Shown: positions 1,643 to 63,438 of the stretch, piece after piece
Layout of the letters: the number at the start of each line of letters is the position of its first letter
Position numbering within the stretch: position 1 is the stretch's first letter
Origin: Eledone cirrhosa
Lineage: Eukaryota
NCBI GenBank assembly: GCA_964016885.1
Contig: OZ024746.1
Coordinates: 50,158,001-50,222,000 of the forward strand
Direction: 5' to 3'
DNA length: 64,000 nt
Program-made: the position numbers and the translations under genes
The notes under the pieces: model-generated
Told to the model about the DNA's origin: nothing
Seen by the model: only the letters and a program-made list of their open reading frames with translations
The model's database searches: none

Positions 1643-1949
1643 TATATATATAAGTGACTATAGCGTCAAAATGGGAAAAATAGTTAACGTAAGATGTGGG
1701 AAAAATAATTCAAACTCATCTCAAAGAGAATGAGGATACAAATTCGTCCACAGAATTTAGTGAAATCCAGGGAAAAATCAATAGAGCCTTAACTCATGAT
1801 AAAATAAAGTTTAAAATACTGATCCTTCAATTTGGAAAAACTTCAAATGATCTGTATAGTTTTAAAGACTATTTCATGAAAACTTTCAGTGGAGATGGTC
1901 ACGGTTGGAATTCAATCCTCAGCAGAGCTCAACTCGATGACCAGGATTG

Positions 1950-1969
1950 TATACATATATATGTATACA

Positions 1970-2053
<84 letters not shown>

Positions 2054-2054
2054 C

Positions 2055-2125
<71 letters not shown>
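1950..2125. repeat. (TA)n microsatellite
   Basis: Direct reading. Similar tracts at about 1347-1367, 1541-1591, 2209-2300, 4044-4122, 5249-5273, 11556-11618, 11760-11861, 16334-16391, 20548-20715 and within 26326-26628. Confidence 0.97.
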
Positions 2126-2129
<4 letters not shown>

Positions 2130-2208
2130 TTTGTGTTTAGTTTAGTGGTCCACCACCGAATAGATCTCACGTAATCAGGCCATTGAAATATATATATAGT
2201 GTTTTTGT
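2126..2208. repeat. Module B, truncated copy
   Basis: AATAGATCTCACGTAATCAGGCCATTGAAATA shared with 11619-11759 and 26367-26484. Confidence 0.85.
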
Positions 2209-2235
2209 GATATATGTATATATTTATATATATAT

Positions 2236-2305
<70 letters not shown>

Positions 2306-2372
2306 GACGTAAAATAAGAAAATATTTTTTTAAAAAAATTTTAAAAAAATTTTTTTACTTACTTAAATTTTC

Positions 2373-2462
2373 ACTCCAACTAATTACTTTCTGCAATGGG
2401 ATAAAGACAGTTACGTAATACAACTGTCGAGAATTCATTGCGTCATCAGGGAGTCTATTCTC
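2373..2462 (-). ncRNA. Type I hammerhead ribozyme, extended (stem III carries a point change in this copy)
   Basis: Minus strand: ACUCC-CUGAUGA-C-GCAAUG...CAUUGC-A-GAAA-GUAAUUAG-UU-GGAGU. Confidence 0.75.
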
Positions 2463-2931
2463 AGTTAAGTCTGCAGGCAATGCGCGGACACTGGCGGCTC
2501 ATATAAAAATAATAATAATTCGGTAGATCGAACAGCTTGCGAGGACTGGATTCTATGTACCGAAATTCTCACTGCTTCAAGTCAAATGGCCGATTCTAAA
2601 GAATCAATCACGTGACACAGAGGCTAGTTAGAAGGAATGGGATGGTAAGATGACTGACGCCTACTAACACCCCCAAAAAAAAATTTCTTTAGAAGTGGTT
2701 TTGACAAGTTTGCTCGACAAATCAGTGATTTGGAGATAAATATAGATAATTTAATATATCAACTAACATAAGCGCACAGATGCACGCCCATGCCAGCAAA
2801 TACACAGGTTATGTCATAGTACCTAGGTGGTTCAATGCAGGAGAATGCAGAACAATAATATAAAGGACGTAAAATAAGAAAATATTTTTTTAAAAAAATT
2901 TTAAAAAAATTTTTTACTTACTTAAATTTTC

Positions 2932-3021
2932 ACTCCAACTAATTAGTTTCTGCAATGGGATAAAGACAGTTACGTAATACAACTGTCGAGAATTCATTGC
3001 GTCATCAGGGAGTCTATTCTC
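2932..3021 (-). ncRNA. Type I hammerhead ribozyme, extended, intact
   Basis: Stem I ACUCC/GGAGU, core CUGAUGA and GAAA, stem II GCAAUG/CAUUGC, palindromic stem III AACUAAUUAGUU, predicted cleavage after GUU. Confidence 0.85.
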
Positions 3022-3495
3022 AGTTAAGTCTCCAGGCAATGCGCGGACACTGGCGGCTCATATAAAAATAATAATAATTCGGTAGATCGAACAGCTTGCG
3101 AGGACTGGATTCTATGTACCGAAATTCTCACTGCTTCAAGTCAAATGGCCGATTCTAAAGAATCAATCACGTGACACAGAGGCTAGTTAGAAGGAATGGG
3201 ATGGTAAGATGACTGACGCCTACTAACACCCCCAAAAAAAAAATTTCTTTAGAAGTGGTTTTGACAAGTTTGCTCGACAAATCAGTGATTTGGAGATAAA
3301 TATAGATAATTTAATATATCAACTAACATAAGCGCACAGATGCACGCCCATGCCAGCAAATACACAGGTTATGTCATAGTACCTAGGTGGTGGTTCAATG
3401 CAGGAGAATGCAGAACAATAATATAAAGGACGTAAAATAAGAAAATATTTTTTTAAAAAAATTTTAAAAAAATTTTTTTACTTACTTAAATTTTC

Positions 3496-3585
3496 ACTCC
3501 AACTAATTAGTTTCTGCAATGGGATAAAGACAGTTACGTAATACAACTGTCGAGAATTCATTGCGTCATCAGGGAGTCTATTCTC
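3496..3585 (-). ncRNA. Type I hammerhead ribozyme, extended, intact
   Basis: Same motif as 2932-3021. Confidence 0.85.
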
Positions 3586-4041
3586 AGTTAAGTCTGCAGG
3601 CAATGCGCGGACACTGGCGGCTCATATAAAAATAATAATAATTCGGTAGATCGAACAGCTTGCGAGGACTGGATTCTATGTACCGAAATTCTCACTGCTT
3701 CAAGTCAAATGGCCGATTCTAAAGAATCAATCACGTGACACAGAGGCTAGTTAGAAGGAATGGGATGGTAAGATGACTGACGCCTACTAACACCCCCAAA
3801 AAAAAATTTCTTTAGAAGTGGTTTTGACAAGTTTGCTCGACAAATCAGTGATTTGGAGATAAATATAGATAATTTAATATATCAACTAACATAAGCGCAC
3901 AGATGCACGCCCATGCCAGCAAATACACAGGTTATGTCATAGTACCTAGGTGGTTCAATGCAGGAGAATGCAGAACAATAATATAAAGGACGTAAAATAA
4001 GAAAATATTTTTTTAAAAAAAATTTTAAAAAAATTTTTTTA

Positions 4042-4108
<67 letters not shown>

Positions 4109-4121
4109 ATACATATATATA

Positions 4122-4611
4122 TGGAGGGTCTGCGGTGAGAAGACCGGGAAGACAACATATTCTATCAAGCTGTTAAAATCCTGATGGAAATCGTCCTTAA
4201 GTGATGTCTACTCGTCCTTTTTAAAGAACGAGTAGACATTCGATAGTGTTGTTTGCAGTAGACTCAGCTAGAATATATAAGGTAGTCAGGTTATAACTCA
4301 ATCGCTTTTAATCATACATAGTTCTGTTGGATTAAAGGCGACACGAAGCTGAACATTACAGTCTGAATTCAAAACTGAAATTAAGGCTCAATGAATAGTT
4401 AAGCACACCGAGACGTCCAAGACGTCAACGCTCTCTGTTGACTCTCAAATCATGACATCAACACAACCTGATAATTTGATTAATTTCATGTTCAAAGTCT
4501 AGTATTCGCTACACTTCATATTGTGATCGAAAACATTACGCTGTTATAGGGGTTTGTGCTACAGTGGAAGCCTTAAAAATAAGAATGAATTCTGTCTTCA
4601 ATGTTTACATA
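4122..4611. repeat. Module C: structured interspersed element fragment
   Basis: 4122-4259 recurs at 26629-26760; 12-bp hairpin ATGTCTACTCGT/ACGAGTAGACAT at 4204-4239. Confidence 0.75.
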
Positions 4612-5248: not shown

Positions 5249-5273
<25 letters not shown>

Positions 5274-5426
5274 GGAAAAGACTCATGAACCCGCCGGCTA
5301 AGCTCCGGCCGTCTCGACAGCTAGGTCTGAACTAGCTGTTGAAGCGGCCGGAGCTCAGCCGTCGGGGTCCTGACTCTTTTCCTTGTAGCCACTCTGCTTT
5401 CTTGGTGCATTATGGTCCACCTGGTT
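5274..5426. other. Module D hairpin, copy 2 (truncated on the right by satellite)
   Basis: Matches 1368-1520 apart from one C>A change seen in the left arm. Confidence 0.9.
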
Positions 5427-8400
5427 TTTTATGGGGTGGGTCCGTTTCCTTATTTGGGTGCCCGTTTATTAGGGGAAGGTCCGTTTTTTATTTGTGTGCC
5501 CGTTTTTTATATGGGTGCCCGTTTTTCATGGGAGGGGGTCCGTTTTTTAGGGGGGTATATTGGTCCGTTTTTTATTTGGGTGCCCATTTTTAATGGAGGG
5601 GCGTTTTTTATTTGGATGCTCATTCTTTATGGGGGCGTCCGTTTCTATTTGGGTGCCCGTTTTTTATTGGGTGTGGATTCGTTTTTTATTTGGGTGCCCG
5701 TATTTTATGGGAGGGGTTTCGTTTTTTATTTGGGTGCACGTTTTTTATGAGGGGGTCCGTTTTTTATTTGGGTGCCCGTTTTTTATGGGGGGGGGGTGTC
5801 CGTTTTTTATTTGGTTGCCCGTTTTATATGGGGGGTTCTGTTTTTTATTTGGTTGCCGGTTTTTATGGGGGGTATCCGTTTTTATTTGGGTGCCCGTTTT
5901 TAATGAGGCGTACGTTTTTTATAGGGTGCCCGTTTTTTATTTGGGTGCCCTTTTATATGAGGGGTGTCCGTTTTTTATGGGGGTATCCGTCTTTATTTGG
6001 GTGCCTGTTTTTTATGGGGTGGGTTCGTTTTCTTATTTAGGTGCCCGTTTTTTATATGGGTGCCCGTTATTTTATTTGGGTGCCCGTTTTTAATGGAGGG
6101 GCGTTTTTTATTTGGAAGCTCGTTCTTTATGGGGGGAGTCCGTTTCAATTTGGGTGCCCGTTTTTTATTGGGTGGGGTTCCGATTTTTATTTGGGTGCCC
6201 GTTTTTTATGAGGGGGCCCGTTTTTTTATTTGGGTGCCCGTTTTTTATGGGGGGATCCATTTTTTATTTGGGTGCCCGTTTTTTATTGGGGGTTCCGTTT
6301 TTCATATGGGTGCCCGTTTTTTATTTGGGTGCCCGTTTTTGAGGGGGGATATTGGTCCGTTTTTTATTTGGGTGCCCGTTTTTTATGGGGGGTCCGTTTT
6401 TTATTTGGGTGCCAGTTTTTAATGGCTAGGGGCGTTTTTTATTTGGGTGCCCGTTTTTTATGGGGCGAGTCCTTTTCTGTTTGGGTGCCCGTTTTTTTTA
6501 TTGGGTGGAGTTTTTTTTATTTGGGTGCCCGTTTTTTATGGGAGGGGTCCGTTTTTCATTTCGCTGCCCGTTTTTTCTGGAGGGGGTCCGTTTTTTATTT
6601 GACCGCCCGTTTTTTATGAGGGGGTCCGTTTTTTATTTGGGTGCTCGATTTTTAGGGGGGAAGTCCGTTTTTTATGGGGGTGGTCCGTTTTTTATTTGGG
6701 TGGCCGTTTTTTATGGGGGCGTCCGTTTTTTCTTTGGGTGCCCGTTTTATATGGGGGATCCATTTTTTATTTGGGTGGCCGTTTTTTATGGGGGGGGGGT
6801 CCGTCTTTTATTTCGGTGCCCGTTTTTATGGGGTGAGGCCGTTTTCTTATTTGGCTGCCCGTTTTTTATGGGGGATCCATTTTTTATTTGGGTGCCCGTT
6901 TTTTATTGGGGGTTCCGTTTTTCATATGGGTGCCCGTTTTTTATTTGGGTGCCCGTTTTTGAGGGGGGATATTGGTCCGTTTTTTATTTGGGTGCCCGTT
7001 TTTTATGGGGGGTCCGTTTTTTATTTGGGTGCCAGTTTTTAATGGCTAGGGGCGTTTTTTATTTGGGTGCCCGTTTTTTATGAGGCTAGTCCTTTTCTAT
7101 TTGGGTGCCCGTTTTTTTATTGGGTGGAGTTTTTTTTATTTGGGTGCCCGTTTTTTATGGGAGGGGTCCGTTTTTTATTTCGCTGCCCGTTTTTTCTGGT
7201 GGGGGGTCCGTTTTTTATTTGACCGCCCGTTTTTTATGAGGGGGTCCGTTTTTTATTTGGGTGCTCGTTTTTTAAGGGGGAAGTCCGTTTTTTATGGGGG
7301 TGGTCCGTTTTTTATTTGGGTGGCCGTTTTTTATGGGGGCGTCCGTTTTTTCTTTGGGTGCCCGTTTTATATGGGGGATCCATTTTTTATTTGGGTGGCC
7401 GTTTTTTATGGGGGGGTCAGGCTTTTATTTGGGTGCCCGTTTTATATGGGGGGATCCGTTTTTTATTTGACTGTACGTTTTTTATGGTGGGGTGTCTGTT
7501 TTTTATTTGGGTGCCCGTTTTTTAGGGGGAGTGTTGGTCCGTTTTTTATTTGGGTCCCCGTTTTTTATGGGGGTCCGTTTTTTTATTAGGGTACCCATTT
7601 TTATAGGGGGTCCGTTTTATATTTGGGAGCCCGTTTTTTATGGGGGGAGTCCGTTTTTTATTTGGGTGCCCGTTTTTTATGGGGGGAGCCATTTTTTATT
7701 TGTGTGCCCGTTTTTTATGGGGGTCCGTTTTTTATTTAGGTACCCGTTTTTTATGGGGGGTCCGTTTTTTATTTGGGTGCCAGTTTTTTACGGGGTGGGG
7801 TACGATTTTTATTTGGGTGCCCTTTTTATGAGGGGTGTCCGTTTTTTATGGGGGTATCCGTTTTTATTTGGGTGCCTGTTTTTTATGGGGTGGGTTCGTT
7901 TTTTATATGGGTGCCCGTTTTTTTATTTGGGTGCCCGTTTTTAATTGAGGGGCGTTTTTTATTTGGAAGCTCGTTCTTTATGGGGGGAGTCCGTTTCTAT
8001 TTGGGTGCCCGTTTTTTATTGGGTGGGGATCCGTTTTTTATTTGGGTGCCCGTTTTTTATGGGAGGGGTTATGTTTTTTATTTGGGTGCCCGTTTTTTAT
8101 GAGGCGGCCCGTTTTTTTATTTGGGTGCCCGTTTTTAATGGATGTGCGTTTTTTATTTGGAAGCTCGTTCTTTATGGGGGGAGTCCGTTTCTATTTGGGT
8201 GCCCGTTTTTTATTGGGTGGGGATCCGTTTTTTATTTGGGTGCCCGTTTTTTATGGGAGGGGTTCCGAGTTTTATTTGGGTGCCCGTTTTTTATGAGGGG
8301 GCCCGTTTTTTTTATTTGGGTGCCCGTTTTTAATGGAGGTGCGTTTTTTATTTGGAAGCTCGTTCTTTATGGGGGAGTCCGTTTCTATTTGGGTACCCGT

Positions 8401-11400
8401 TTTTTATTTGGGTGCCCGTTTTTTATGGGAGGCGTTCCGTTTTTTATTTGGGTGCCCGTTTTTTATGAGGGGGTCCGTTTTTTTATTTGGGTGCCCGTTT
8501 TTTATGGGTGGGTCCGTTTTTTATTTGGGTGTCCGTGTTTTATGATGGGGGCTGTTTTATTTGGGCGCCCGTTTTTTAGGGGCTTGTTGGTCCACTTTTT
8601 AATTGGGGACTCGTTTTTTATGGGGGGTCCGTTTTTTTTTGGGGGGGGGGGGCGTTTTTTATTTGGATGCGCGTTTTTATGGGGTGGGGCCGTTTTCTTA
8701 TTTGGGTGCCCGTTTTTTATGGGAGGTGTCCGTTTCTTATTTCGGTGCCCGTTTTTTCTGGGGGGTCCGTTTTTTATTTGGGTGCCCGTTTTTATGGGGT
8801 GGGGCCGTTTTCTTATTTGGCTGCCCGTTTTTTATGGGGGGGATCCATTTTTTATTTGGGTGCTTGTTTTTTATTGGGGGTTCCGTTTTTCATATGGGTG
8901 CCCGTTTTTTATTTGGGTGCCCGTTTTTGAGGGGGGATATTGGTCCGTTTTTTATTTGGGTGCCCGTTTTTTATGGGGGGTCCGTTTTTTATTTGGGTGC
9001 CAGTTTTTAATGGCTAGGGGCGTTTTTTATTTGGGTGCCCGTTGTTTATGGGGCGAGTCCTTTTCTATTTGGGTGCACGTTTTTTTATTGGGTGGAGTTT
9101 TTTTTATTTGGGTGCGCGTTTTTTATGGGAGGGGTCCGTTTTTTATTTCGCTGCCCGTTTTTTCTGGAGGGGGTCCGTTTTTTATTTGACCGCCTTTTTT
9201 TATGAGGGGGTCCGTTTTTTATTTGGGTGCTCGTTTTTTAAGGGGGAAGTCCGTTTTTTATGGGGGGGTGTTCCGTTTTTTATTTAGGTGCCCGTTTTTT
9301 ATGGGGGGGTCCATTTTTTATTTGGGTGCCAGTTTTTTACGGGGTGGGGTACGATTTTTATTTGGGTGCCCTTTTTTATGAGGTGTGTCAGTTTTTTATG
9401 GGGGTATCCGTTTTTATTTGGGTGCCTGTTTTTTATGGGGTGGGTTCGTTTTCTTATTTAGGTGCCCATTTTTTATATGGGTGCCGTTTTTTTATTTGGG
9501 TGTCCGTTTTTAATGGAGGGCCGTTTTTTATTTGGAAGCTCGTTCTTTATGGGGGGGAGTCCGTTTCTATTTGGGTGCCCGTTTTTTATTGGGTGGGGAT
9601 CCGTTTTTTATTTGGGTGCCCGTTTTTTATGGGAGGGGTTATGTTTTTTATTTGGGTGCCCGTTTTTTATGAGGCGGCCCGTTTTTTTATTTGGGTGCCC
9701 GTTTTTAATGGATGTGCGTTTTTTATTTGGAAGCTCGTTCTTTATGGGGGGGTCCGTTTCTATTTGGGTGCCCGTTTTTTATTGGGTGGAGATCCGTTTT
9801 TTATTTGGGTGCCCGTTTTTTGTGGGAGGGGTTCCGATTTTTATTTGGGTGCCCGTCTTTTATGGGGTGGTCCGTTTTTTATTTGGGTGTCCGTGTTTTA
9901 TGGTGGGGGCTTTGTTTTATTTGGGCGCCCGTTTTTTAGGGGGCTGTTGGTCCACTTTTTAATTGAGGGCCCGTTTTTTATGGGGGGTCTGTTTTTTGTT
10001 GGGGGGTCCGTTCATTATTTGGATGCGCGTTTTTATGGGGTGGGGCCGTTTTCTTATTTGGGTGCCCGTTTTTATGAGGTGGGGCCGTTTTCTTATTTGG
10101 CTGCCCGTTTTTTATGGGGGGGATCCGTTTTTTATTTGGGTGCCCGTTTTTTATTGGGGTTCCGTTTTTCATATGGGTGCCCGTTTTTTATTTGGGTGCC
10201 CGTTTTTGAAGGGGGATATTGGTCCGTTTTTTATTTGGGTGCCCGTTTTTTATGGGGGATCCGTTTTATATTTGGGTTCCCGTTTTGGGGGGGGCCCGTT
10301 TTTATGCGGGGTGTCCGTTTTTATGCGGGGTCCGTTTTTTTTTCGGGTGCCCGCTTTTTATGGGGTGGGTTTGTTTTCTTATTTAGGTGCCCGTTTTGGG
10401 GGGGGCTTTTTTGTTTGGGTGCCCGTTTTTTATTAGGGTCCCCGTTTTTTATGGTTGGGTGGTCCGTTTTTTATTTGGGTGCGCATTTTTCATGGAGGTG
10501 TCCGTTGTTTTATTTGGGAGCCCGTTTTTATGGGGGCTATCCGTTTTTTTTATGGGTGCCCTTTTTTTAGGGGGAGGTCCGTTTATTATTTGGGTGCCCA
10601 TTTTTTATGGAGGAGGGGGTACGTTTTTTATTTGGGTGCCAGTTTTTAATGGCTGGGGCGTGTTTTATTTGGGTACCCGTTTTTTATTGGGTGAAGGTCC
10701 GTTTTTTATTTGGGTGCCCGTTTTTTATGAGAGGGTCCGTTTTTTATTTGGGTGTCCGTTTTTTTATGGCGGGGGTCAGTTTGTCATGGTGGGTGGTCCG
10801 TTTTTTATTTGGGTGCCCGTTTTTTATGGAGGGGATCCGTTTTTCATTAGGGTGCCCTTTTTTATGGTGGGGTCGTCCGTTTTTTATTTGTGTGCGCATT
10901 TTTCATGGAGGTGTCCGTTTTTTTATGGGTGCCCGTTTTTTTAAGGGGGAGGTCCGTTTATTATTTGAGAGCCCGTTTTTTATGGGGCGAGTCCGTTTCT
11001 ATTTGGGTGCCCGTTTTTTGGAAGGGGTCCGTTTATTATTTGGGTGCCCGCTTTTTATGGGAGGGGGTCTGTTTTTTATTTCGATGCCCGTTTTTTCTGG
11101 GGTATGTCCGTATTTTATTTGGGCACCTGTTTTTTATGAGGGGGTCCGTTTTTTATTTGGTTGCCTGATTTTTATGGGGGAGGTCCTTTTTTATTGGTGG
11201 TGGTCCATTTTCTATTTGGGTGGCCGTTTTTTATGGGGGGGTCCGTTTTTATTTGGGTGTCCGTATTATTAGGGGGGATCCGTTTTTTATTTGGGTGCCC
11301 GTTTTATATGAGGGGATCCGTTTTTATTTGGGTGACCCTTTTTTATGGTGAGGTTTCCGTTTTTTATTTGGATGCCCGTTTTTCATGGGGGTGGGGCATT

Positions 11401-11555
11401 TTTTATTTGGGTGCCCGTTTTTTTGGGGGGGTGTTAGTTCGTTTTTTATAGGCGGTCCGATTTTTATTTGGGTGCCCTTTTTATGAGGGGTGTCCGTTTT
11501 TTATGGGGTGTATCCGTTTTTATTTGGATGCCTGTTTTTTATGGGGGGTTCTTTT
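5427..11555 (+). repeat. G/T-rich satellite, block 3
   Basis: Same monomer; marker AATGGCTAGG at 6421, 7041 and ~9009 shows higher-order duplication. Confidence 0.97.
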
Positions 11556-11618: not shown

Positions 11619-11759
11619 TTCATTTGTGTTTACTGGTCCACCACAGAATAGATCTCACGTAATCAGGCCATTGAAATATATATATAGTGTTTTTGTCACA
11701 ACGAAGCTTTAAAGAAACATCTCCAGTCTGGCCTCCTGTTGTTTCAATCAAAGCAATAC
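11619..11759. repeat. Module B, longest copy
   Basis: Homologous to 2126-2208 and 26367-26484; lies between microsatellite tracts. Confidence 0.85.
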
Positions 11760-11762
11760 ACC

Positions 11763-11863
<101 letters not shown>

Positions 11864-12082
11864 TTTCTGAATTTGTTTAGCAAGATTCTTTATCTGAAAT
11901 CGTGGTGTGTTGAAACCGATATTGTTATACCTTGGGAGGGTCATGTTGCCAATAAGTAACACACGCACCAGTTGCTTTCACTTCAATTTATTATTTTAAT
12001 AAATTTATAATAAATTTATAAATTTATAAATTTCTAGTTGGTTGGTTGGTTGGTTCCACAACCAGATAGTTGTTTATATATT

Positions 12083-12125
12083 GTCATAGTTCTTTCGTCA
12101 CACACTCTGTGACCTCTTCAGTGAC
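12083..12125 (-). ncRNA. Minimal type I hammerhead ribozyme of PLE1
   Basis: GUCA-CUGAAGA-G-GUCACA(GAGUG)UGUGAC-GAAA-GAAC-UA-UGAC. Confidence 0.85.
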
Positions 12126-12324
12126 TGGGGATTCCTTTCTTTGTTTCTGTGCCTCTCCTTTGTTCTGTCCTACGCCATTTTGTTTCTGCGTGTGTTGTGT
12201 GCTCAGTCTGCGCATGCGCCACATCCGGGTGTCTGTGTGTATTTATGTTCATTTATTTATTTGTTTATTTACATGTTACTGGTTGGTTGTTTGTTCTATG
12301 TGTGTGTGTGTTTTCATTTTGTCC

Positions 12325-15300
12325 TTAATTGTAAGTTGTGATGTTGCTGTTCCACTCATATTTTCTATTTAATTTTGGTTGTAATTCTTTTATGTTTATT
12401 GCCTCTGTAATTTGTCTAAACATTGCGTCTTTTCTGTGTGTAGATTCTATTTTTATTTCTATGTACTCTAATTTACCCTTGTGTTCTATTTTAGCATGTT
12501 GGTAGAGTACAGATGATTCTTTACTGTCTTGAAGGTCTCACCAGTGTTCATTTATCCGTTCCCCTACACTACGAGCTGTCTCACCTATGTACACTATATT
12601 TTTGTCTCTACATTGTCCTTCAGTACATCTTATGCTATACACTACATTTCTAGTTTTACAGTTAATATGGGGGCTTATATTACAGGTTATACATTTCTTA
12701 TCTATACATGAGGGTCTTTGAAAAGGGTATGTCTTGCTATTAAGTGTTTTTACTGAGGTACCTGGTCTTTCTACTATCTTAATATTGAGTTTATGTTTAT
12801 TTAGGGCCCTTCGAAATTTGTAAGCTAATTCACCTCTAGGGGTTGTATCGATGAACATTACACTCTGGTATTTATTGCTATCATACCATGAGTTTATTCT
12901 ATTAGCTTTGTTCCTAGTTCTTTCTATTCTATTCCAAAATTTGCTCCTATACAAGGGGCACGTCCCATTTATGTCATTATTTACCATTTTTTCCCATTTG
13001 GTTCTGGCTCGTCTATACACTCTCATTTTATCTCTCTGATTGTAGCCAGAGAACTGCATACGGTGGATGAAGTGTTGTATGTGTCTCTAGTTCTTCGGGG
13101 TTGCACATGCGGGACACGTTTCTCATCACCCGTACCAAATCCGCAATCAGTATGTTGATTTTGGTATGGTCCGAAACGGCCGAGTTTCGGTGGATCAGAT
13201 GTTTGGAAGTCATGGGTTTGGCATAATGGGAATGGAGGATTTGTTTTTTGTTATTAATGGTATCTAACCAGAGCTCTGTGTCTAGTAGAGGTAATCGATG
13301 GTTGGGGTGTTTACTTGGGTAGTCTATAGTAACTCTAATGCTCTGGTGGATGGAGTTAGCTATTTGCTGGATGCTTTCCATTGTGTTTTTCTCTAGTTCC
13401 TGACTGTTCTCTAGTGGGGGTGTCTTAACTACGATGTTTATATCCTCAACGTAGCGGGAGTACATTATCAGGGTTAAGGGGTCTTCTAATTGTTCTTTAA
13501 GCTTAAGTTTAAGTCTACTGTCCCACCATACCATGAATAAGTTAGCTATGTCGCCTGCAATGCTAACACCAATGGCTGCTCCTTCCTCTTGGGCATATGT
13601 TTTTCCATTAAATTTGAACATATGTTCCTTAAGGGTTAGTTTTATGCTGGCCCCTACCGCATGTGCAATCATTTTCTTCAGTTCATCGTGGTTTTCGGGT
13701 GTCCGTGTGGCTCTGGTCCACCCGTTCCATCTATCTGTGTGGGTTTTCTTGGCCATTGAGGTAATGGTAGGTGGTCTGCCTCTTGCTGGTCTTGTAGGGC
13801 ACAGGTTGCTAAGGTCATATGTGTCTAGGTAATTATTACTATAGGTAAGTTTAAGTAGGAGTCCCAGCTCACTGGTATCAATCCCACGGAACTCAACATT
13901 GCTCTCACTGATCATTTCTACGCATTTCTCCACAGCAAAATCCACGTCAATAGATGGATACAGGGACACAACATCCATACTACCTATTATGCAGTTTGTT
14001 AGGTCCCTAGATCGGTTACTCACGCCGATTCTGCTGAGGAGGTCCTCCGTGTTGTCACATATATCTGGGGACATTTCGATGATGGGGCGTATGATCAGGG
14101 AGAGGAAGTAGGACAGTCTGTAGTTATTAGCAATGTTAGCTCCACAGACTGGCCGTGTTGGTGGTCCCGCGACAGGGTTACAGCCCGTTTTATGGTCTTT
14201 CGAAGCCCATACAACGCCGGCACGTCATTGTTCCAGGCCTGGAAGTTGTTGGCAGTCCTTTTGTTGGGCTGCATTATATTCGCCCACATCACCATATGGG
14301 CATTGAGGGCTTTTTCTCTATCCTCATGCTCCTGTGGTGTTACCTCTCTTGTGTTAATGATGTGGGGTTGCATTGCCTGGATGTAGTTTGGCAGGCTGTC
14401 AACCGACATTCTGCCAGACTTGTCTGTTGGAAAGCATGCTATCTCTCCATTACGCGAGCGCTGCATGAGCTTACGCAAGCCATTTGCAGATTTTTCTCCC
14501 AGTTGCTGGGCCTCCATTCTATTATGCTTCTTGCTATACTGTTCTATAATATTTCTAAGTTCGGATCTAGCTATACTAAATTGTGCTTCTGTTTGTTCAT
14601 CGACCTGCGACGGCAATTGCGTGCGTTTGTTAAATGGTAAAGTCGTGGCGTGGACTCGTCGCAGGTCGAACGATTTATCGGAGGGATTATAAAAAGTAGA
14701 GTTCCAGGCTGCTGCTTTATGTGTACTAGTGCTATTGTTATTGTTAATTCTGTTGTTTCTATTTCTATTTCCACCAACAGCCTCATGGTTGTTTCTATGT
14801 CTCTCATAATTACTCCTGTCTCTTTCCACTGGCTCATTGTTGTTATCTACCCTATTTTCTGTGTCTGTGTGTTCGTCTTGGTTATTTTCTTTGTCCTTAG
14901 TCTCCCTTCTCCTTTTAATCCTATTACTTTCCCTTATTTCTGTGATTTCTGTGCTACTGTCATTACTTGTTCTCTGTGTCTGTGTGTTTGTTAAGATTGT
15001 GGTGGTGATGAGAGGCATTGAATGTGTGTGTGTTGTTGTTGTTGAGGTGTGCTGTTGTTGATGTGTGTTGTTGTTGTCTCCGTGTGTGTTATTATTGTTT
15101 TGTGTGTTGTTATTGTTGTTTGTGTCTGCGTGTCTGTTGTTGTTGTTTCTGGGTATGTTATTATTGTTGTTGTTGTTGGTGTGTGTGTTGTTGTTATTGT
15201 TGTTTGTGGCTGTGTGTCTGTTGTTGTTGGGATGTGTGTTGTATATGTGTGTGCGTATATTGTTGCTTTTGTTTTTGTTTTTATTTTTGAGGCTCCAGCG

Positions 15301-15576
15301 TAGTTTTGTAAATGATTTTTCTATTTCTGACTGACAACTAATCATATTTACCTTCTTGAATGTCGCATACTTAGGTGGAAGTTGTAATGCAGATAATTCA
15401 TCGTTATCTATTATTGTGTTGCCGTATATATTTGTGTTGTTGTTGTTGTTGAACTCATCTGTTAATGAGGTGTCGGCCATATTTATACCGTCAATTTTGT
15501 CGGGATATCTATTGGTATTCTCTATAGTATCCTGATTTAGCTTTATCTGCTTAAGCCACTTTAGTTTCTTGTTAAA
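12325..15576 (-). pseudogene. PLE1 polyprotein (Asn/His/Thr-rich region, reverse transcriptase, Cys-rich linker, GIY-YIG endonuclease), disrupted
   Basis: Motifs PTDKSGR, GSMDVVSLYPSI, GAAIGVSIAGDIANLFM, RYVEDI and NVVY...YIGETAR; frameshifts near 14190 and 13070; TGA at 12538 where the inverted copy has CGA. Confidence 0.92.
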
Positions 15577-16333
15577 ATAAGCCCCCATATTAACTGTAAA
15601 ACTAGAAATGTAGTGTATAGCATAAGATGTACTGAAGGACAATGTAGAGACAAAAATATAGTGTACATAGGTGAGACAGCTCGTAGTGTAGGGGAACGGA
15701 TAAATGAACACTGGCGAGACCTTCAAGACAGTAAAGAATCATCTGTACTCTACCAACATGCTAAAATAGAACACAAGGGTAAATTAGAGAACATAGAAAT
15801 AAAAATAGAATCTACACACAGAAAAGACGCAATGTTTAGACAAATTACAGAGGCAATAAACATAAAAGAATTACAACCAAAATTAAATAGAAAATATGAG
15901 TGGAACAGCAACATCACAACTTACAATTAATGACAAAATGAAAACACACACACACATAGAACAAACAACCAACCAGTAACATGTAAATAAACAAATAAAT
16001 AAATGAACATAAACACACACAGACACCCGGATGTGGCGCATGCGCAGACTGAGCACACAACACACACACAGAAACAAAATGGCGTAGGACAGAACAAAGG
16101 AGAGGCACAGAAACAAAGAAAGGAATCCCCCGTCACTGAAGAGGTCACAGAGTGTGTGACGAAAGAACTATGACAATATATAAACAACTATCTGGTTGTG
16201 GAACCAACCAACCAACCAGAAATTTATAAATTTATGAATTTATTATAAATTTATTATAATAATAAATTGAAGTGAAAGCAACTGGTGCGTGTGTTTCTTA
16301 TTGGCAACATGACCCTCCCAAAGTATAACAATA
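15577..16333 (+). repeat. Inverted copy of the PLE1 3' end (GIY-YIG coding part to 15930, UTR, hammerhead)
   Basis: Reverse complement of 11920-12678; ORF YSIRCTEGQCRDKNIVYIGETARSVGERINEH...LNRKYEW. Confidence 0.95.
16132..16174 (+). ncRNA. Minimal type I hammerhead ribozyme (inverted copy)
   Basis: GTCACTGAAGAGGTCACAGAGTGTGTGACGAAAGAACTATGAC. Confidence 0.85.
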
Positions 16334-16394
<61 letters not shown>

Positions 16395-16521
16395 AAAGTT
16401 TTATTTAAAATTGTTGGGTTACAACAAGTAAATATTTTATAACTGATATAAAGCACTCAACAAGTTTTGGAGTAGATATACGATATTAAACAAATGGAAA
16501 CTATATTTATAAAACCATATC

Positions 16522-16587
16522 TATTTCATTATACATATTTCGGGGATACCATATTAAAAATATGGCATGCCGTCTTCAGATAAAATA
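16522..16587 (-). ncRNA. Type I hammerhead ribozyme of PLE2
   Basis: UAUUUUAU-CUGAAGA-C-GGCAUGCCAUA(UUUUUAA)UAUGGUAUCCC-C-GAAA-UAUGUA-UA-AUGAAAUA; the inverted copy has AUAAAAUA, a perfect stem I partner. Confidence 0.8.
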
Positions 16588-18211
16588 CAATATATAAACA
16601 GTTTTATAAATAATTTTGACGTACCATAAATATTGATCAACTTGTATGTAAGAAGTTGGTTTGGTAGTGAAATGTTTATAAATATTTAGTGTTAAGCACA
16701 GTTAAAAAGAAAGACGGAGAAAAAGAAGAAATGTATGTAAAGAAAAACAGAGAGAAATAGAGAGAGATAGGGGAGAGAGAAATAGTGAGGAGGTGAAAAA
16801 AGAGACGCAGCTGAGGCAACAGATGAATAATAATAATTTATCATACAAATTGAGAGATTTAGGAGGGAGTACTGTACTTATTTAGTTATAGTGTTAAGGA
16901 GACGGAGAGAAATAAAAAATGAAGAGAAAACAGAGAGAGAGAGAAAGATAGAGGTGGGGGGAAAAAAGAGGTAGACCAAATAATAATAAGTATTATATAT
17001 GGCGAGGTGAGAGAAATAGGAAAGAAGTAAGAGAGAAAATAAGAGAGAAACTCGAGAGGCAAAGTTAAAATAACCGATACTTAGACTTCATCAAATATAA
17101 AGAGGGAGGAGAAGAAAGAGCTATATCAAGAGAGAGGGATGATAGATTTACATCTTTACGTTATGTCCTATCAATTTGAATTATCAATTCATATGAATTG
17201 GGTATTATAATGTAAATATCAATATTCATGAATGAGACATAGATATATAATGTGTGAAAAATAATGACCATATGTTTAGTTTAAAATTCTGAGGTCGATG
17301 TACCAAAAACTGAGATAAAATTTCAAAAAATACGGAAATATATAAGTATATATGTACTTTCCGGAAAAGGAAAGAAAGAGAAAAAGAGAAGGTCATCTCA
17401 AGTTCTAGTTGATACTATAGACATACCCATGATCTTACGTGATCAACTCTGTAATTTCTTGTTTCACAGAAAAAAAAATGTTTCCCTTGTGTTATAAAAG
17501 ATTTTACTATATATATATATACATAAAAAATATATATTAATACTCCTGCCCTCACATACATGATTATCGTTCATGTATAGAATATTATGCATATCTGTAA
17601 CATATCCAGAGCTATACCCACACATACATATATATATATATATATGTATGCACACATATATGCACATGGACAGATAAAATAAACAGATAAAATAAAATAT
17701 ACTCTGTAATCATTCCATATTCATATTAATACATATGGCCTTTGTACAGAGACAACCAGATATTAATATATCAGCACAGAGATATCAAAACGTTAAAAAT
17801 ATTTTCATCACTCCCTAGAGTATCTCGGGCCGTAAAAAACACAGTATGCACCCCATATCAACCACAGAAATATACGCTTCCAATTTATCTGACAATATAT
17901 TGCCAAGTTCATTAGAAGCAATCAGAATCAAAAAGCAAACAAAAAACCAAAAATTATTCAACAAAACTTATTTAGCAGAAATCATTTAAAAGATTTAGGA
18001 GACCCTGTTGTTCTACAGATGCTCTTATATTTAGTATAGAAGTTTATCTAGCGTAAAATTTATTCAATAGATTGGGAGCATCTACATTTTAGGGTAGTTT
18101 AATTACATCATTAGTATATATTTATGAAGAAGGTTTAAAAGAAAAAGTTGAAGGAATCGAAAGATTTATCGTCAGGTTTCATACATTAATTAAATATCTT
18201 AACTAATTATA

Positions 18212-20455
18212 CTACATTTTAAATTTATATTTATATTTAAACGTTGAGTTCAATCTATGTCTGCAGCAACTGAATAAATTGCTCCTTAAATTAAGGACAT
18301 TTTTAGATTTTAATATAAAGAATATCTCCTCCACACAGAGGTCACATGTCTCAGATGAGGAATTAAAAGGAATCCCTCTTGAGACAATATTCCAAAACAT
18401 CGAATACCCAACGTTATCATGTTTAAGTTGCCAGAGTAAGCCTGATAGTGAAGTTGAAGATTTCTTGTTTGGATCTGTGAAAGAATTCTTATGATTATTG
18501 TAGCGAAGTTTAAATTCTGTCGAGGTGGAACCAACATAGTTAAAAGAATTTAAGTTAGTTTTAACATTACAATTGTATATTATATTTTTAACTAAGCAAT
18601 TGTTATTTAACGGACATTTAGATTTATTTCTACAGTTACAGTTGTTTAATTGAATATTGTTTTGGCTATTATCGGTATTTTGGCTAGGTTTTAGATTCCT
18701 ATTATTTATTCTGTTAATATTTTGTGCTAAATTTTTGGTGGACGAGTTAGTTAATTTTATAGTATGTCTATTAAAAATTGAGTGATATTTATGTGTTCTA
18801 GGGAAGCGTTTGTCAAGAGCATTAAAAAATAGTTTAGCAATGTGGGTTTTAATATTTAGTGAGAAAGGGGGGGGCGAACCATATTATATTTCTAGTTCTA
18901 TTTCTTTTCTGGCTTTTGGAATTATTGTAATGTTTTCTATTATAGTTGTTAAAGTTGTTACCGTAATTAAAATTGTTATTATAACGTTTGCCTATTTAAA
19001 ATTGTTATTATAACGTTTGCCTATTATTATCGATGTACTTAATTTAATAACTATATCCTGCTCTAGCTAACGCTTCATTGTAATACTGCGCTTTTTCGTC
19101 GAAAATATTTTTATTAGATGAAATTCTTGAGATACGTTCTTGAACAGAGTTCACTATAGTATTTTTAACAGATCTGGGGTGGTTAGAGTTAAAATTGACA
19201 TAATTCAAGTTTTCATTTAGTTTGTGAAATGGATAGTGAAGACATGTGTTGAGATTTAGTGTTACATCTAGGAAATTGACTATTCTATGGTTATTCTCTA
19301 TTTCTATTTTTAGATTAAGGTAATTAAAAAATTGTATAATTTGTTTTCTTTTTCTATTTAGTTCAGAGTTATTATTTTCAATAAGTAAAAGCATTTCATC
19401 ACGATATAATCCTCCGGTTACACCAGGTATTTTTCTATGCAGCGAATTAATTATAAATAGGCCCACAAGGTCCGTTACCTGAGCTGAGTCAGATGATCCC
19501 ATAGTAATGTCGAAATTATTATCTCTATCTGCCCTAGTCCATAGTTGGTTATTAAATTCTATCAATGTTTTCCTTGCCGATAATATAATGTGCATTTCAT
19601 TGCTAGTTAGGTCTGTATGTTTGAATGCGTAATTTAGTGCCTTATTCAGTAGATTAGGGGTAATAGATGAATAGTAGTTAGCAATATCTAGTTGAATAAA
19701 TTTATTAGTATTGTTATATTTAATTTCTTTAAACCATTCAATAACCTCACCAGTCCCCTTCCATAAGTTTAAGTTAGGTAAATTATGTAAGTTTTTAATT
19801 TGCTGTATCACCCTGTCTAGAATGTTTTTGCTAAGTTTACCCAGGTCGGATTTTGATGGTGCAATCAATCTGACTGGCAAATCATTTTCAAAATTTCTTT
19901 TGTGATCTTTCATATTGATCTTGGGTTTCCTAGGCAAGAAGGGTTGTGTTTTGTTCTCAATGTCCAACTCATGCATTATACAAGATGCCTCAACATTCAT
20001 TTTTTCCAGTTCGTCCTTATCTGCTACCTTGTACTTTTTCCTTAGTTCTTTCAATATAAGGCCATTATACATGTCTTTATGCACTCCATAAAGGTTGTTG
20101 GTTTTGTCCGATTTCACCAAGATCTTCTCTGTTCTCTCCAAGCCTTCAATATTATCCTTAATGCTTCTTAGATAGTCCTGGTCTTTGAAGTTTCTCTTGA
20201 ATTTGACTCCTTGTATGATAGAAATTATATCGTTTTCAAAATCCATTAAAAGTTTGTTGGGGGTGGATTTTTTTTAGATTTGAAAACTTTATCTAAGTCT
20301 CAAACATTTTCATTTAGATTAGATTTATCAAAGTGGAAGGCACGCCACCTGATTCTTCTTATAAAAGAGTCTGATTTTTCTATTAATTGTTTAATAAAGT
20401 CTTTGTTCTTAGGTAGAGGTATGTCTTTTAGAGAAGAAGATATCTTAAAGAATTC
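18212..20455 (-). pseudogene. PLE2 polyprotein (RT + GIY-YIG), disrupted
   Basis: FIRRIRWRAFHF, VKSDKTNNLY, LDIANYYSSI, FDITMGSSDSAQVTDLVG, GLYRDE, NFLDVTLNL, SNHP, IIWFAPPFS, CNCRNKSKCPLNNNC, NIIY...YVGST, CDLC...CCRHR; stops and frameshifts separate these blocks. Confidence 0.92.
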
Positions 20456-20550
20456 CGTTTTTTTTTTTTTTTAATATGGTATCCCCGAAATATGTATAAT
20501 AAAATAAATATGGTTTTATAAATATAGTTTCCATTTGTTTAATATCGTAT

Positions 20551-20671
<121 letters not shown>

Positions 20672-20768
20672 AATATATATATATATAAATATATATATAT
20701 ATATCTAAATATATATGAGAGACGTAAAATAAGAAAATTATAAAATTAACTTACTTACTAAAATATCA

Positions 20769-20857
20769 CTTCCAACTAATTAGTTTCTGAAATGGAATAA
20801 ATATATTTTCCGAAGAAAACATCGAGAATCATTTCGTCGTCGGGGAAGACTATTCTC
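20769..20857 (-). ncRNA. Extended hammerhead, core mutated (CCGACGA)
   Basis: CUUCC-CCGACGA-C-GAAAUG...CAUUUC-A-GAAA-CUAAUUAG-UU-GGAAG. Confidence 0.7.
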
Positions 20858-21290
20858 ATCTAAGTATCCAGGCAAAGCGGGGACTCTGGAAACTTATTCA
20901 AATATAATTCAGTGGATAGAAAATAGCAAATCGTGGACTGAATTCCTAGCCATTGAGAAAATCACTGCCTCTGCGTCGGTGGCAAATTCAAAAAGAATCA
21001 ATCACGTGACATCGAGGTCAATCATTTGAAAGTGGTTTGCTAATAAGACAGCGGCCTGCCTGCTACCATAGCAGCAGTCGTGGCCAATATTGCTCGACAA
21101 ATAATTTGGAGATAATTATAAAGAATTAATATCTAGTAACATATATATACATACAGATGCATATCAATGCTAGCAAATATATAGGTTTTGTCTTAGTAAC
21201 TTTGTGGTTCAATGCATGGGGTTGCAGAACAATAATATGAGAGACGTAAAATAAGAAAATTATAAAATTAACTTACTTACTAAAATATCA

Positions 21291-21379
21291 CTTCCAACTA
21301 ATTAGTTTCTGAAATGGAATAAATATATTTTCCGAAGAAAACATAGAGAATCATTTCGTCGTCAGGGAAGACTATTCTC
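21291..21379 (-). ncRNA. Extended type I hammerhead, intact core (CUGACGA)
   Basis: Stem I CUUCC/GGAAG, stem II GAAAUG/CAUUUC, inner hairpin with cUUCGg loop. Confidence 0.85.
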
Positions 21380-21418
21380 ATCAGGCAAAACGGGGACTCT
21401 GGAAACTTATTCAAAAAT

Positions 21419-26366: not shown

Positions 26367-26566
26367 ATTCATAATAGATCTCACGTAATCAGGCCATTGA
26401 AATATGTATATAGTGTTTTTGTCACAACAAAGCTTTAAAGAAGCATCACCAGTCTGGCCTCCTGTTGTTTCAGTCTAAGCAATACACACACACACAAACA
26501 TATATATATATATATAGATAAATGAAAGGTATAGAAATTGTTTTAGCGAGAAGCTAACAGTGTTCC

Positions 26567-26622
<56 letters not shown>

Positions 26623-26760
26623 CAGATATGGAGGTTCTGCGGTAAGAAGACCGGGAAGACAACATATTCTATCAACCTGTTAAAATCCTGATGGAAATCG
26701 TCCTTAAATGATGTCTACTCGTCCTTTTTAAAGAACGCATTCGATAGTGTTGTTTGCAGT
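26367..26760. repeat. Compact island: module B (26367-26484), module A (26520-26570) and module C (26629-26760) separated by (TA)n/(CA)n
   Basis: Direct homology to the copies at 11619, 1592 and 4122. Confidence 0.85.
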
Positions 26761-62376: not shown

Positions 62377-62841
62377 TAGCGCGTGCCTGAGAGGGGTGCA
62401 GAATTAATTTCGCCCGGTGAACCCCAACCAAAGTTACTCCCGTCGTTTATATCCGTAAAGTGACTAAAGATTAAAACAAATGTAATATATTTACGGTTAG
62501 GGTTGAGGCGATACTTGGTTTTAGTGTCCTAAATTATCATCATCGACATTCAATTATTAGCTCCACCCACTACACGAAACGTCACGACACGTCATCAGCT
62601 GCTGCTGCTTGATTTTTACATGTTAATTTTCTTATATGCTTCATTTTTACACGAAAAAACATTGAATTTTTAGAATAAATATTTATTAAAATATTAACAG
62701 AGAAAATTAGATTTTTGATTTATTTTTTGAACAAAATAAATATTTATTTACAGTTTTTCACAGAAAAACTATGCTTCATTTTTACATGAATATTTATTTA
62801 CAGTTTTTAACAACAGAAAAAAAAATTATTTAAACAATATA

Positions 62842-63438
62842 TTGTTGCGATATACAGTAATTTTTTTTTACCGGTGCAATTTTATGCGTGATGTATGTAG
62901 TGAATGGGTTGAACAAAATCCGGCGATACTCGGTGGTCTTGATTCTAACGGAATACCAATAACTGTACAAATTGATGAGAGCAAATATTTTCATCGTAAA
63001 TATGCTTGTGGGCTCTGGCATGAAGGACATTGGGTCATTGGCGGAATTGATACTAATAATCCCTGCAATATTTTTCTCCATGAAATCCCTGATTGGACTG
63101 CTGAGACTCTGCTGCCTCTCATTGAAAGGCACTGTGCAAATGGATCTATGATCCATACAGATGAGTGGCGGGCGTACAATAAAATGCCAAATTTGCCTGG
63201 TCGTTATACACATCTCACTGTCAATCATTCAAAGCATTTCGTTGATCCCATATCAAGTACACACACGCAAAATATTGAGGGGATGTGGTCTCATGCCAAA
63301 AAGAAACTAAAATGCATCAATGGTACCAGCGGACCAATATTTCAGTCGTATTTAAGGGAGTTTGAGTGGCGATGGCGCAATGCCACGTATCTAACTGGTA
63401 AAGGTAAATGTTTCGAAAAAAATGTGGCGATCGCTTAA
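62842..63438 (+). CDS. Merlin / IS1595-ISXO2-like DDE transposase, catalytic part (N-terminus missing)
   Basis: VQIDESK..HRKY..G, WVIGGI, AETLLPLI, IHTDEWRAY, HLTVNHSKHFVDP, HTQNIEGMW: D, D and E triad present. Confidence 0.9.
   Translation: MLRYTVIFFYRCNFMRDVCSEWVEQNPAILGGLDSNGIPITVQIDESKYFHRKYACGLWHEGHWVIGGIDTNNPCNIFLHEIPDWTAETLLPLIERHCANGSMIHTDEWRAYNKMPNLPGRYTHLTVNHSKHFVDPISSTHTQNIEGMWSHAKKKLKCINGTSGPIFQSYLREFEWRWRNATYLTGKGKCFEKNVAIA

Follow-up and report, generated by a model that had tools for sequence, protein, structure and literature searches.

Two tandem arrays of short units, whose sequences have diverged from one another, both stop against a (TA)n microsatellite within the window (i.e., the whole 64,000-nucleotide stretch of DNA that was analyzed), which raises the question of what decides where such arrays end: pairing with the microsatellite, a signal carried by the element, or the later history of the locus?

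The two arrays and their surroundings

The window is eukaryotic repeat DNA, in which a 19-bp satellite (11-1301, 5450-11542 and 21418-59870) is interspersed with islands of (TA)n and mobile elements. The last of these satellite blocks is a 38-kb array of some 2040 copies of the 19-bp unit, strongly strand-skewed and with higher-order variants. No third related array besides the two named A and B here was found by blastn within the window, and a DNA pattern search of public genome contigs, a collection holding no eukaryotic genomes, gave 0 matches to further copies; the comparison of A and B rests on two independent insertions only (n = 2).

2303..4045 (element-unique), minus strand: array A, three units measuring 560, 563 and 560 bp and a further 62 bp (blastn, alignment)
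1950..2302, no strand: (TA)n at the 3' end of array A, broken at ~2126-2204 by another short repeat
4044..4122, no strand: (TA)n at the 5' end of array A, 2-nt overlap
20717..21417, minus strand: array B, one full 522-bp unit plus ~180 bp, a non-coding hammerhead repeat
20548..20716, no strand: (TA)n at the 3' end of array B, 93% alternating steps
20996..21011, no strand: 16-bp block identical in A and B (A/B comparison), containing CACGTG

With the overlaps included, array A extends over 2298-4045 and array B over 20713-21417. Of the unit lengths given in the first-pass annotation, 522 bp was accurate, whereas 561 bp is merely the mean of the three units of A. These units are set apart by two substitutions and a few gaps, identity being 99% within A and 93% within B, as opposed to 73% between the arrays (ungapped columns). 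The block containing CACGTG might, judging from its sequence, be an internal promoter element.

Array B is oriented with the 3' end of its RNA at the low coordinate, and its 5' end is joined to the 19-bp satellite at ~21418 over a short shared TAT. Of the two arrays, A alone is bordered by (TA)n at each end. The 5' end of array A (4045) lies 16 nt short of the next hammerhead cut position, a proximity that would arise by chance in ~3% of cases and is represented by one case here. It fits, and may hint at, a linear template whose 5' end had been produced by self-cleavage, but the template may instead have been circular.

Junctions with the microsatellite

At the 3' end of array B, ATAT (20713-20716) is common to the (TA)n and the unit, and element-unique sequence begins at 20717; at that of array A, ATATA (2298-2302) is shared and element-unique sequence begins at 2303. 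The left edge of the ambiguity zone falls on one and the same aligned column in both, so the claim that both arrays meet (TA)n at the homologous point, with overlaps of 5 nt (A) and 4 nt (B), is borne out. The flanks beyond the (TA)n are unrelated; a target-site duplication would not be discernible inside the (TA)n.

Two uniformly random breakpoints would coincide within a 4-5 nt zone with P ~0.01. If, however, only TA-alternating stretches of 4 nt or more (5 in A and 11 in B) can serve as breakpoints, 3 of the 55 possible pairings are homologous (P = 0.055), which makes the A and B junctions by themselves suggestive rather than decisive. The chance that a randomly placed breakpoint would overlap by 5 nt or more is P = 0.022 in A; for 4 nt or more in B it is P = 0.063. 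Longer TA runs were left unused in both units (9, 7 and 6 nt in B; 6 nt in A).

Hammerhead ribozymes and coding capacity

Hammerheads were called by a custom type I scan of both strands together with covariation. The scan gave seven hits in the window, three of which lie on the minus strand of A2, A3 and B2 (i.e., the second and third units of A and the second of B).

21291..21370, minus strand: intact type I hammerhead of B (CUGACGA-C ... A-GAAA), cleavage after 21296
20769..20848, minus strand: terminal B hammerhead, its core changed to CCGACGA; the cleavage position is 20774, at 61 nt from the junction
2932..3013, minus strand: intact type I hammerhead of unit A2; the same in A3 at 3496-3577
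2373-2454, minus strand: hammerhead of unit A1, in which a C-to-G change breaks stem III

In the usual hammerhead numbering, these ribozymes combine a 5-bp stem I and the core CUGA(U/C)GA with ~50 nt of stem II, GAAA, and a stem III that is self-complementary and closes on GUU; the intact copy of B shows this plan with its 5-bp stem I, long stem II and palindromic stem III. The subfamilies differ on both sides of stem I (ACUCC/GGAGU vs CUUCC/GGAAG), double-sided changes occur in stem II too, and RNAalifold gives a double-sided change in 4 of the 20 predicted pairs. The core with an extra mismatched pair beside stem II also appears in the table of Penelope-like element (PLE) hammerheads in File S2 of PMC8557442. 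An Rfam scan of 1200-21500 returned 19 matches, all of them microRNA families below the gathering score, and no ribozyme.

Retrozymes are recognized by hammerheads in at least two consecutive units: array A has intact ones in A2 and A3, whereas B, with one intact and one mutated copy, would fall short on its own. The cut site lies 79 nt (A) and 61 nt (B) from the junction, the hammerhead thus being situated close before the 3' terminus. As the hammerheads are on the minus strand, the RNA is the minus strand and the junction is on its 3' side; it is presumed to be the place where reverse transcription started.

The hammerheads nearest to the junction (A1 and B1) carry one core change each, while the copies upstream are intact, and the change in A1 is one of only two substitutions in the whole of array A. 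An uncut terminal ribozyme could have been favoured there, but a general need for an inactive terminal hammerhead was rejected, the terminal cores being intact in the loci outside the window that are described below. A further type I hammerhead-like hit (1855-1927, minus strand, core 1922) is located just left of the (TA)n of array A.

All six frames of the A and B units are frequently interrupted by stops, and no ORF is detectable in them: a Hydra-type profile (21 homologues of at least 600 aa, out of 51 found) matched at chance level (iE 0.5-1.3), with an hhalign probability of 0.2%, and tblastn of the units with the proteins of the neighbouring Neptune/Nematis-like element found nothing. 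An ORF combining a reverse transcriptase (RT) with a C-terminal GIY-YIG endonuclease (motifs RWK, DKT, CxCX5C, CxxC and CxH) is absent from both arrays. The idea that the units are degenerate coding sequence was likewise rejected, as the match to a Hydra N-terminus is noise according to hhalign and lies on the plus strand, i.e., the wrong one for the ribozyme.

Neighbouring elements

Several other elements share the (TA)n islands of the window with A and B:

18212..20449, minus strand: degraded Hydra-clade PLE ORF, RT plus C-terminal GIY-YIG
20468..20547, plus strand: piece of family C, inverted and 5'-truncated, attached to the Hydra-clade PLE
16392..16600, minus strand: 3' end of family C with a type I hammerhead (cut 16530) and a hairpin at 16455-16473
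11862-16337, minus strand: Neptune/Nematis-like PLE with a frameshifted ORF
2126-2200, 11620-11760 and 26370-26486: short repeat family
4123-4259 and 26630-26760: short repeat family
1593-1652 and 26521-26580: short repeat family

The Hydra-clade ORF has the motifs DKT, RWR, CxCx5C, CxxC and CxH, is no longer intact, owing to frameshifts, stop codons and a tandem duplication of 29 bp (18967-19025), and finds its named homologues in cephalopods and a coral. It would represent the type of enzyme that mobilizes A and B rather than their sequence partner: neither this element nor the 12 outside loci show blastn homology to A or B beyond short AT-rich matches. That array B might be the pLTR of the adjacent Hydra ORF was considered and rejected, since there is no homology and the (TA)n as well as the inverted family C piece lie between them. 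Together with that attached fragment, an inverted 3' end located at its 5' end, the Hydra-clade PLE spans 18212-20547.

[quoted passage not shown] The other copy of C reads through this first site and joins another (TA)n at +138, i.e., at a second site 84 nt further on.

The Neptune/Nematis-like PLE, whose clade was judged from motifs against the descriptions given in PMC8557442, has 765-bp inverted repeats, hammerheads at 12121 (minus) and 16136 (plus), and a tail of ~58 nt on one side only. It is bordered by (TA)n on both sides, reached at two different points of the inverted repeats; no descriptor hairpin follows its hammerhead, and A and B show no homology to it.

The three short repeat families start at (TA)n tracts in two or three places each and are likely to be the ends of other (TA)n-associated elements. 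A GC-rich palindromic element (1348-1540 and 5254-5426, with a long hairpin at 1367-1477) also lies beside (TA)n, its two copies probably resulting from a local duplication, since the satellite flank is shared. A stretch at 17660-18150 (plus strand) resembles a short GIY-YIG C-terminus by eye, although tblastn with the neighbouring PLE proteins gives no support for it, and an ORF at 62740-63438 (plus strand) with an ISXO2-like/IS1595 DDE transposase domain (Pfam PF12762, E 1.9e-18) is what we take to be a Merlin-type DNA transposon.

A bulged hairpin next to the junction

A search of public contigs with a Hydra protein alignment provided 12 outside loci (L001-L012), most likely eukaryotic host DNA contaminating bacterial genome bins. 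The scan detected a hammerhead in 9 of the 12, and L008 has one by eye; the order seen in these loci is the ribozyme, a short TA-rich stretch, and a hairpin of the form GCUC-stem-loop-stem-UU-GAGC. A covariance model (R1), seeded from 6 sequences of similar length among 11 candidate hairpins, lists 17 hairpins in 9 of the 12 loci, the 6 training sequences included. In the R1-fitted alignment, pairing is kept in 96.7% of the 91 cells and double-sided change is found in 10, neither figure being reached in any of 500 shuffles, while further pair types on this alignment are not above shuffles (327/500). Two hairpins 62-65 nt apart are present in L002, L006 and L008.

Hairpins of a similar kind are found in A and B:

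21207..21230, minus strand: hairpin 1 of B (GUUC-UGCA loop UGCA-UU-GAAC), located 4 nt 3' of the junction site's internal copy
2830..2853, minus strand, also 3393-3416 and 3953-3976: hairpin 1 of A, 4 nt 3' of the junction site
21093..21111, minus strand: second hairpin-like site of B (CUC-CAAA loop UUUG-UC-GAG), with a TA run before it
2713..2735, minus strand, also 3273-3295 and 3836-3858: second hairpin-like site of A (pattern only)

The form in A and B (GUUC..UU-GAAC) differs from that seen in the outside loci (GCUC..UU-GAGC) by a compensatory change in the outer stem, with the UU bulge kept. Over the non-satellite part of the window (35.8 kb), a structural descriptor of the hairpin gave 6 hits, of which 4 are in A/B, 1 is in C and 1 is background; over the outside loci (132.5 kb) it gave 11. 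Among 1000 shuffles of each unit, 2 placed a hit within the first 15 nt past the junction, a test that is partly circular, the descriptor having been written with A and B known.

Model R1, trained on the outside loci only, places the three A hairpins jointly at the top of 22 hits by score (E 0.43) and the B hairpin 12th (E 6.7), its first-listed match being the second hairpin-like site of B (21088-21122, E 0.4). A second-round model, R2, brought no gain in the A/B scores (A hairpin E 0.78, B hairpin E 3.9, satellite decoys above both; second hairpin-like site of B E 1.4), and the second hairpin-like site of A is listed by neither model. The link that these models (E 0.4-7) suggest between the A/B hairpin and Hydra is therefore a weak one. 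Folding of the 121-nt region is significant in A (z -3.1) and not in B (z -1.3), that of the 61-nt hairpin region being unusual in neither (z -0.9 and -0.8). The second hairpin-like site of B is predicted to be an alternative start, i.e., a "tail" site.

The position of the junction relative to the hairpin could be read in nine families, which were hand-picked by comparing a shorter copy with a read-through copy, inverted pairs being counted once: A, B, the neighbouring family C, and six from public contigs (F1-F5 and L008). The Neptune/Nematis-like neighbour, having no such hairpin, was left out.

A: junction 4 nt before the hairpin, in-phase TA overlap 5 nt
B: 4 nt, overlap 4 nt
C: 2 nt, overlap 5 nt
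F1: 3 nt, overlap 8 nt
F2: 6 nt, overlap 1 nt
F3: 5 nt, overlap 3 nt
F4: 5 nt (distance read by eye), overlap 3 nt
F5: 6 nt, no in-phase overlap (phase read by eye)
L008: 4 nt (to the second hairpin), overlap 4 nt

In all nine families with a read-through reference the junction thus lies 2-6 nt before the bulged hairpin, and in seven of them the TA overlap amounts to at least 3 nt (random-breakpoint P ~5e-6). The distance from the ribozyme cut to the junction is 35-79 nt in the eight first-site cases, or 35-55 nt without A and B. A second end point, 98-138 nt past the cut, is used by other copies, and its junction could be checked in L008 only (4 nt before hairpin 2). Tails are present in C, F1-F3, L008 and the Neptune/Nematis-like neighbour, and in neither A nor B. 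Junctions with (TATG)n also exist among the families.

Isolated "tail" pieces that start at the first start site were seen in L009 (1419-1563) and L008 (3769-3910). They are bordered 5' by (TA)n or (TTAA)n, which shows the segment with the hairpin attached to the target at its other side. Inspection by eye reveals the same hairpin in three of the six Hydra consensus sequences that accompany PMC8557442, located past the ribozyme or right at the start of the sequence, and one has two hairpins.

A proposed mechanism and its alternatives

Arrays A and B are, in our judgement, quite probably two subfamilies of a non-autonomous PLE of the non-LTR-retrozyme type, whose reverse transcription is started by a Hydra-type protein near the hairpin. 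As they have no RT/GIY-YIG ORF, they are not Hydra elements proper, and they are filed here only as working like the 3' ends of Hydra elements. The 520-560 bp unit would follow the plan of a Hydra-clade element without its ORF: start site, hairpin(s), spacer, type I hammerhead, and 60-80 nt back to the start site. From this arrangement we infer that the hammerheads may be active; that a Hydra-type RT/GIY-YIG protein, acting in trans, might bind a multimeric (or circular) minus-strand RNA, the bulged hairpin being the probable place of contact; that the endonuclease would nick (TA)n DNA, the 3'-OH of which would prime cDNA synthesis inside the RNA (target-primed reverse transcription); and that a short UA stretch, 2-6 nt 5' of the hairpin, would be where the cDNA starts, pairing with the primer by a few bases, which would help and not be a requirement. 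Two hairpins would then give two starts, and these the PLE "tail".

The start site is probably fixed by the hairpin, and the number of start sites per element is probably two instead of one. The fixed internal site of reverse transcription proposed in the first-pass annotation is accordingly retained, the same geometry recurring in seven other Hydra-type families, whereas that site is probably not the only one, given that related elements end at either of two points and that A and B hold a second hairpin-like site. To that annotation the present analysis adds the element class, the strand and the ribozyme. As the hairpin lies 3' of the start, the terminal unit would be made without it, and a mobile copy would be regenerated from tandem or circular templates only; this loss of the start signal from the terminal unit would explain why elements of the A/B type persist as tandems.

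A more far-reaching reading, which can be advanced only tentatively, somewhat short of an even chance when its parts are taken jointly, is that the GCUC..UU-GAGC type of hairpin is common to Hydra-clade PLEs and their retrozyme-like parasites and acts in the manner of the telomerase template-boundary element, the analogy chosen here for a start-site hairpin. It would dock the RT, a UA "alignment" stretch 2-6 nt upstream, paired with the primer from nicked (TA)n, would be where initiation takes place, two copies of the hairpin 60-120 nt apart would cause the PLE tail, and the hairpin would be the missing cis signal between an animal retrozyme and its helper.

Could the nicked (TA)n strand simply find the ATAT of the unit by base pairing, with no RNA structure needed? 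The 4-nt and 5-nt overlaps of B and A, and those of at least 3 nt in 7 of 9 families, are what such annealing would produce, and to this extent the annealing to nicked (TA)n advocated earlier stands. It does not, however, seem to choose the site by itself, because the longer TA runs of B (9, 7 and 6 nt), and that of A (6 nt), were left unused, and because F2 with its 1-nt overlap and F5 with none in phase still end 6 nt before the hairpin; the start in the one in vitro system (PMC11167929) is reported to lack homology to the DNA that is cut. Annealing alone is, therefore, an unlikely explanation. Slightly less probable still is mobilization by another PLE clade (Neptune/Nematis-like or Naiad, which are (TA)n-biased too), with the likeness of the hairpin to that of Hydra being coincidental. 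The weak covariance-model scores of A and B would agree with this, as would the Neptune/Nematis-like element at 11862-16337, which likewise ends in (TA)n on both sides; yet that element has no descriptor hairpin after its hammerhead, Naiads are without canonical hammerheads according to the text of PMC8557442, and A and B retain the UU bulge, the compensatory outer-stem change and the 4-nt spacing.

The remaining two alternatives concern the origin of the (TA)n and of the junctions. That the element partly makes the (TA)n, either through slippage of a telomerase-related RT on UAUA or through the overlap seeding a later microsatellite expansion, would account for the length of the tracts (98-176 bp segments) and for their always starting at the element's own TA motif, and PLE RTs are indeed relatives of telomerase (PMC8557442). 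But A carries (TA)n on its 5' side as well, the same tracts are joined by two further PLE families and by repeats unrelated to it, and there are junctions with (TATG)n or with a 1-nt overlap, all of which makes this origin distinctly improbable. The junctions might also be secondary, i.e., an old satellite-like array could have been cut by microhomology-mediated deletion or recombination, or one ancient junction could have been duplicated and diverged. The fusion of the other end of B to satellite with a short TAT overlap would suit such events, as would the P of only 0.055 for the A/B coincidence once the dependence on TA runs is considered; they would, however, leave the hairpin adjacency in nine of nine families unexplained, the flanks beyond the (TA)n are unrelated, and identities of 99% (A) and 93% (B) within as against 73% between the arrays point to separate, younger insertions, so that secondary junctions seem the least credible of the readings, and very improbable. 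With initiation near the hairpin as the preferred reading, the "site-specific" insertion proposed earlier in place of random tandem duplication keeps its targeting of (TA)n and is better described as "microsatellite-targeted".

Comparison with known elements

The element class, the preference for (TA)n and internal initiation have all been published, which makes the main point of the first-pass annotation largely a rediscovery; the hairpin marking the start is the potentially new part. A full-text search, whose coverage leaves out most subscription journals and Repbase, found no published description of its positional rule, and the main text and supplement text of PMC8557442 gave 0 hits for hairpin, stem-loop and microhomology. 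As microsatellite bias and tail formation are described there as open mechanistic questions, a hairpin of 20-25 nt at a constant 2-6 nt from the insertion end would offer a concrete and mutable cis element for both of them, and could serve as a simple marker by which retrozyme families are matched with Hydra-clade helpers; in PMC7761336, animal retrozymes are described as having no conserved motif pointing to a helper element.

Among PLEs, the Hydra clade (Craig et al. 2021, PMC8557442) has hammerheads, tails and, in almost all of its families, insertion into (TA)n, a trait found here at both ends of A but only at the 3' end of B; for one Hydra family, four copies ending at one site have been described. 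Unlike these elements, A and B are without an RT or endonuclease ORF, have a longer stem II (~50 nt between the core halves) and come in units of 520-560 bp, and in the comparison with the neighbour and the 12 outside loci they share with the Hydra pLTR only the hairpin motif, with weak model scores.

The metazoan non-LTR retrozymes (Cervera and de la Pena 2020, PMC7229834; Li et al. 2026, 10.64898/2026.07.22.740005) are similar in being non-coding tandems with a type I hammerhead per unit, in their low GC content, and in having been proposed to be non-autonomous PLE derivatives. The 522-563 bp units of A and B are above the 150-450 bp given in the former and inside the 51-972 bp given in the latter, a preprint, and, unlike for A and B, neither (TA)n targeting nor a fixed end is described in the available parts of these two papers. 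[quoted passage not shown]

A mechanistic parallel may be drawn with the PAc Poseidon element (Frangieh et al. 2024, PMC11167929), for which internal initiation at two sites, with a start lacking homology to the cut DNA, has been shown in vitro, and hammerhead cleavage was dispensable in vitro. Fixed internal start positions in the RNA downstream of the hammerhead, a need for RNA 3' of the start, two start sites that give a "tail", and an AT-rich target are features to which the elements considered here seem to conform likewise. The PAc start, however, lies inside an AC-rich stem-loop within the ORF, whereas a start of the A/B type would lie on a non-coding UA stretch 5' of the bulged hairpin, with a 3-8 nt overlap in most families, and the tails seen here are ~60-85 nt long, as compared with the 30-40 nt of PAc.
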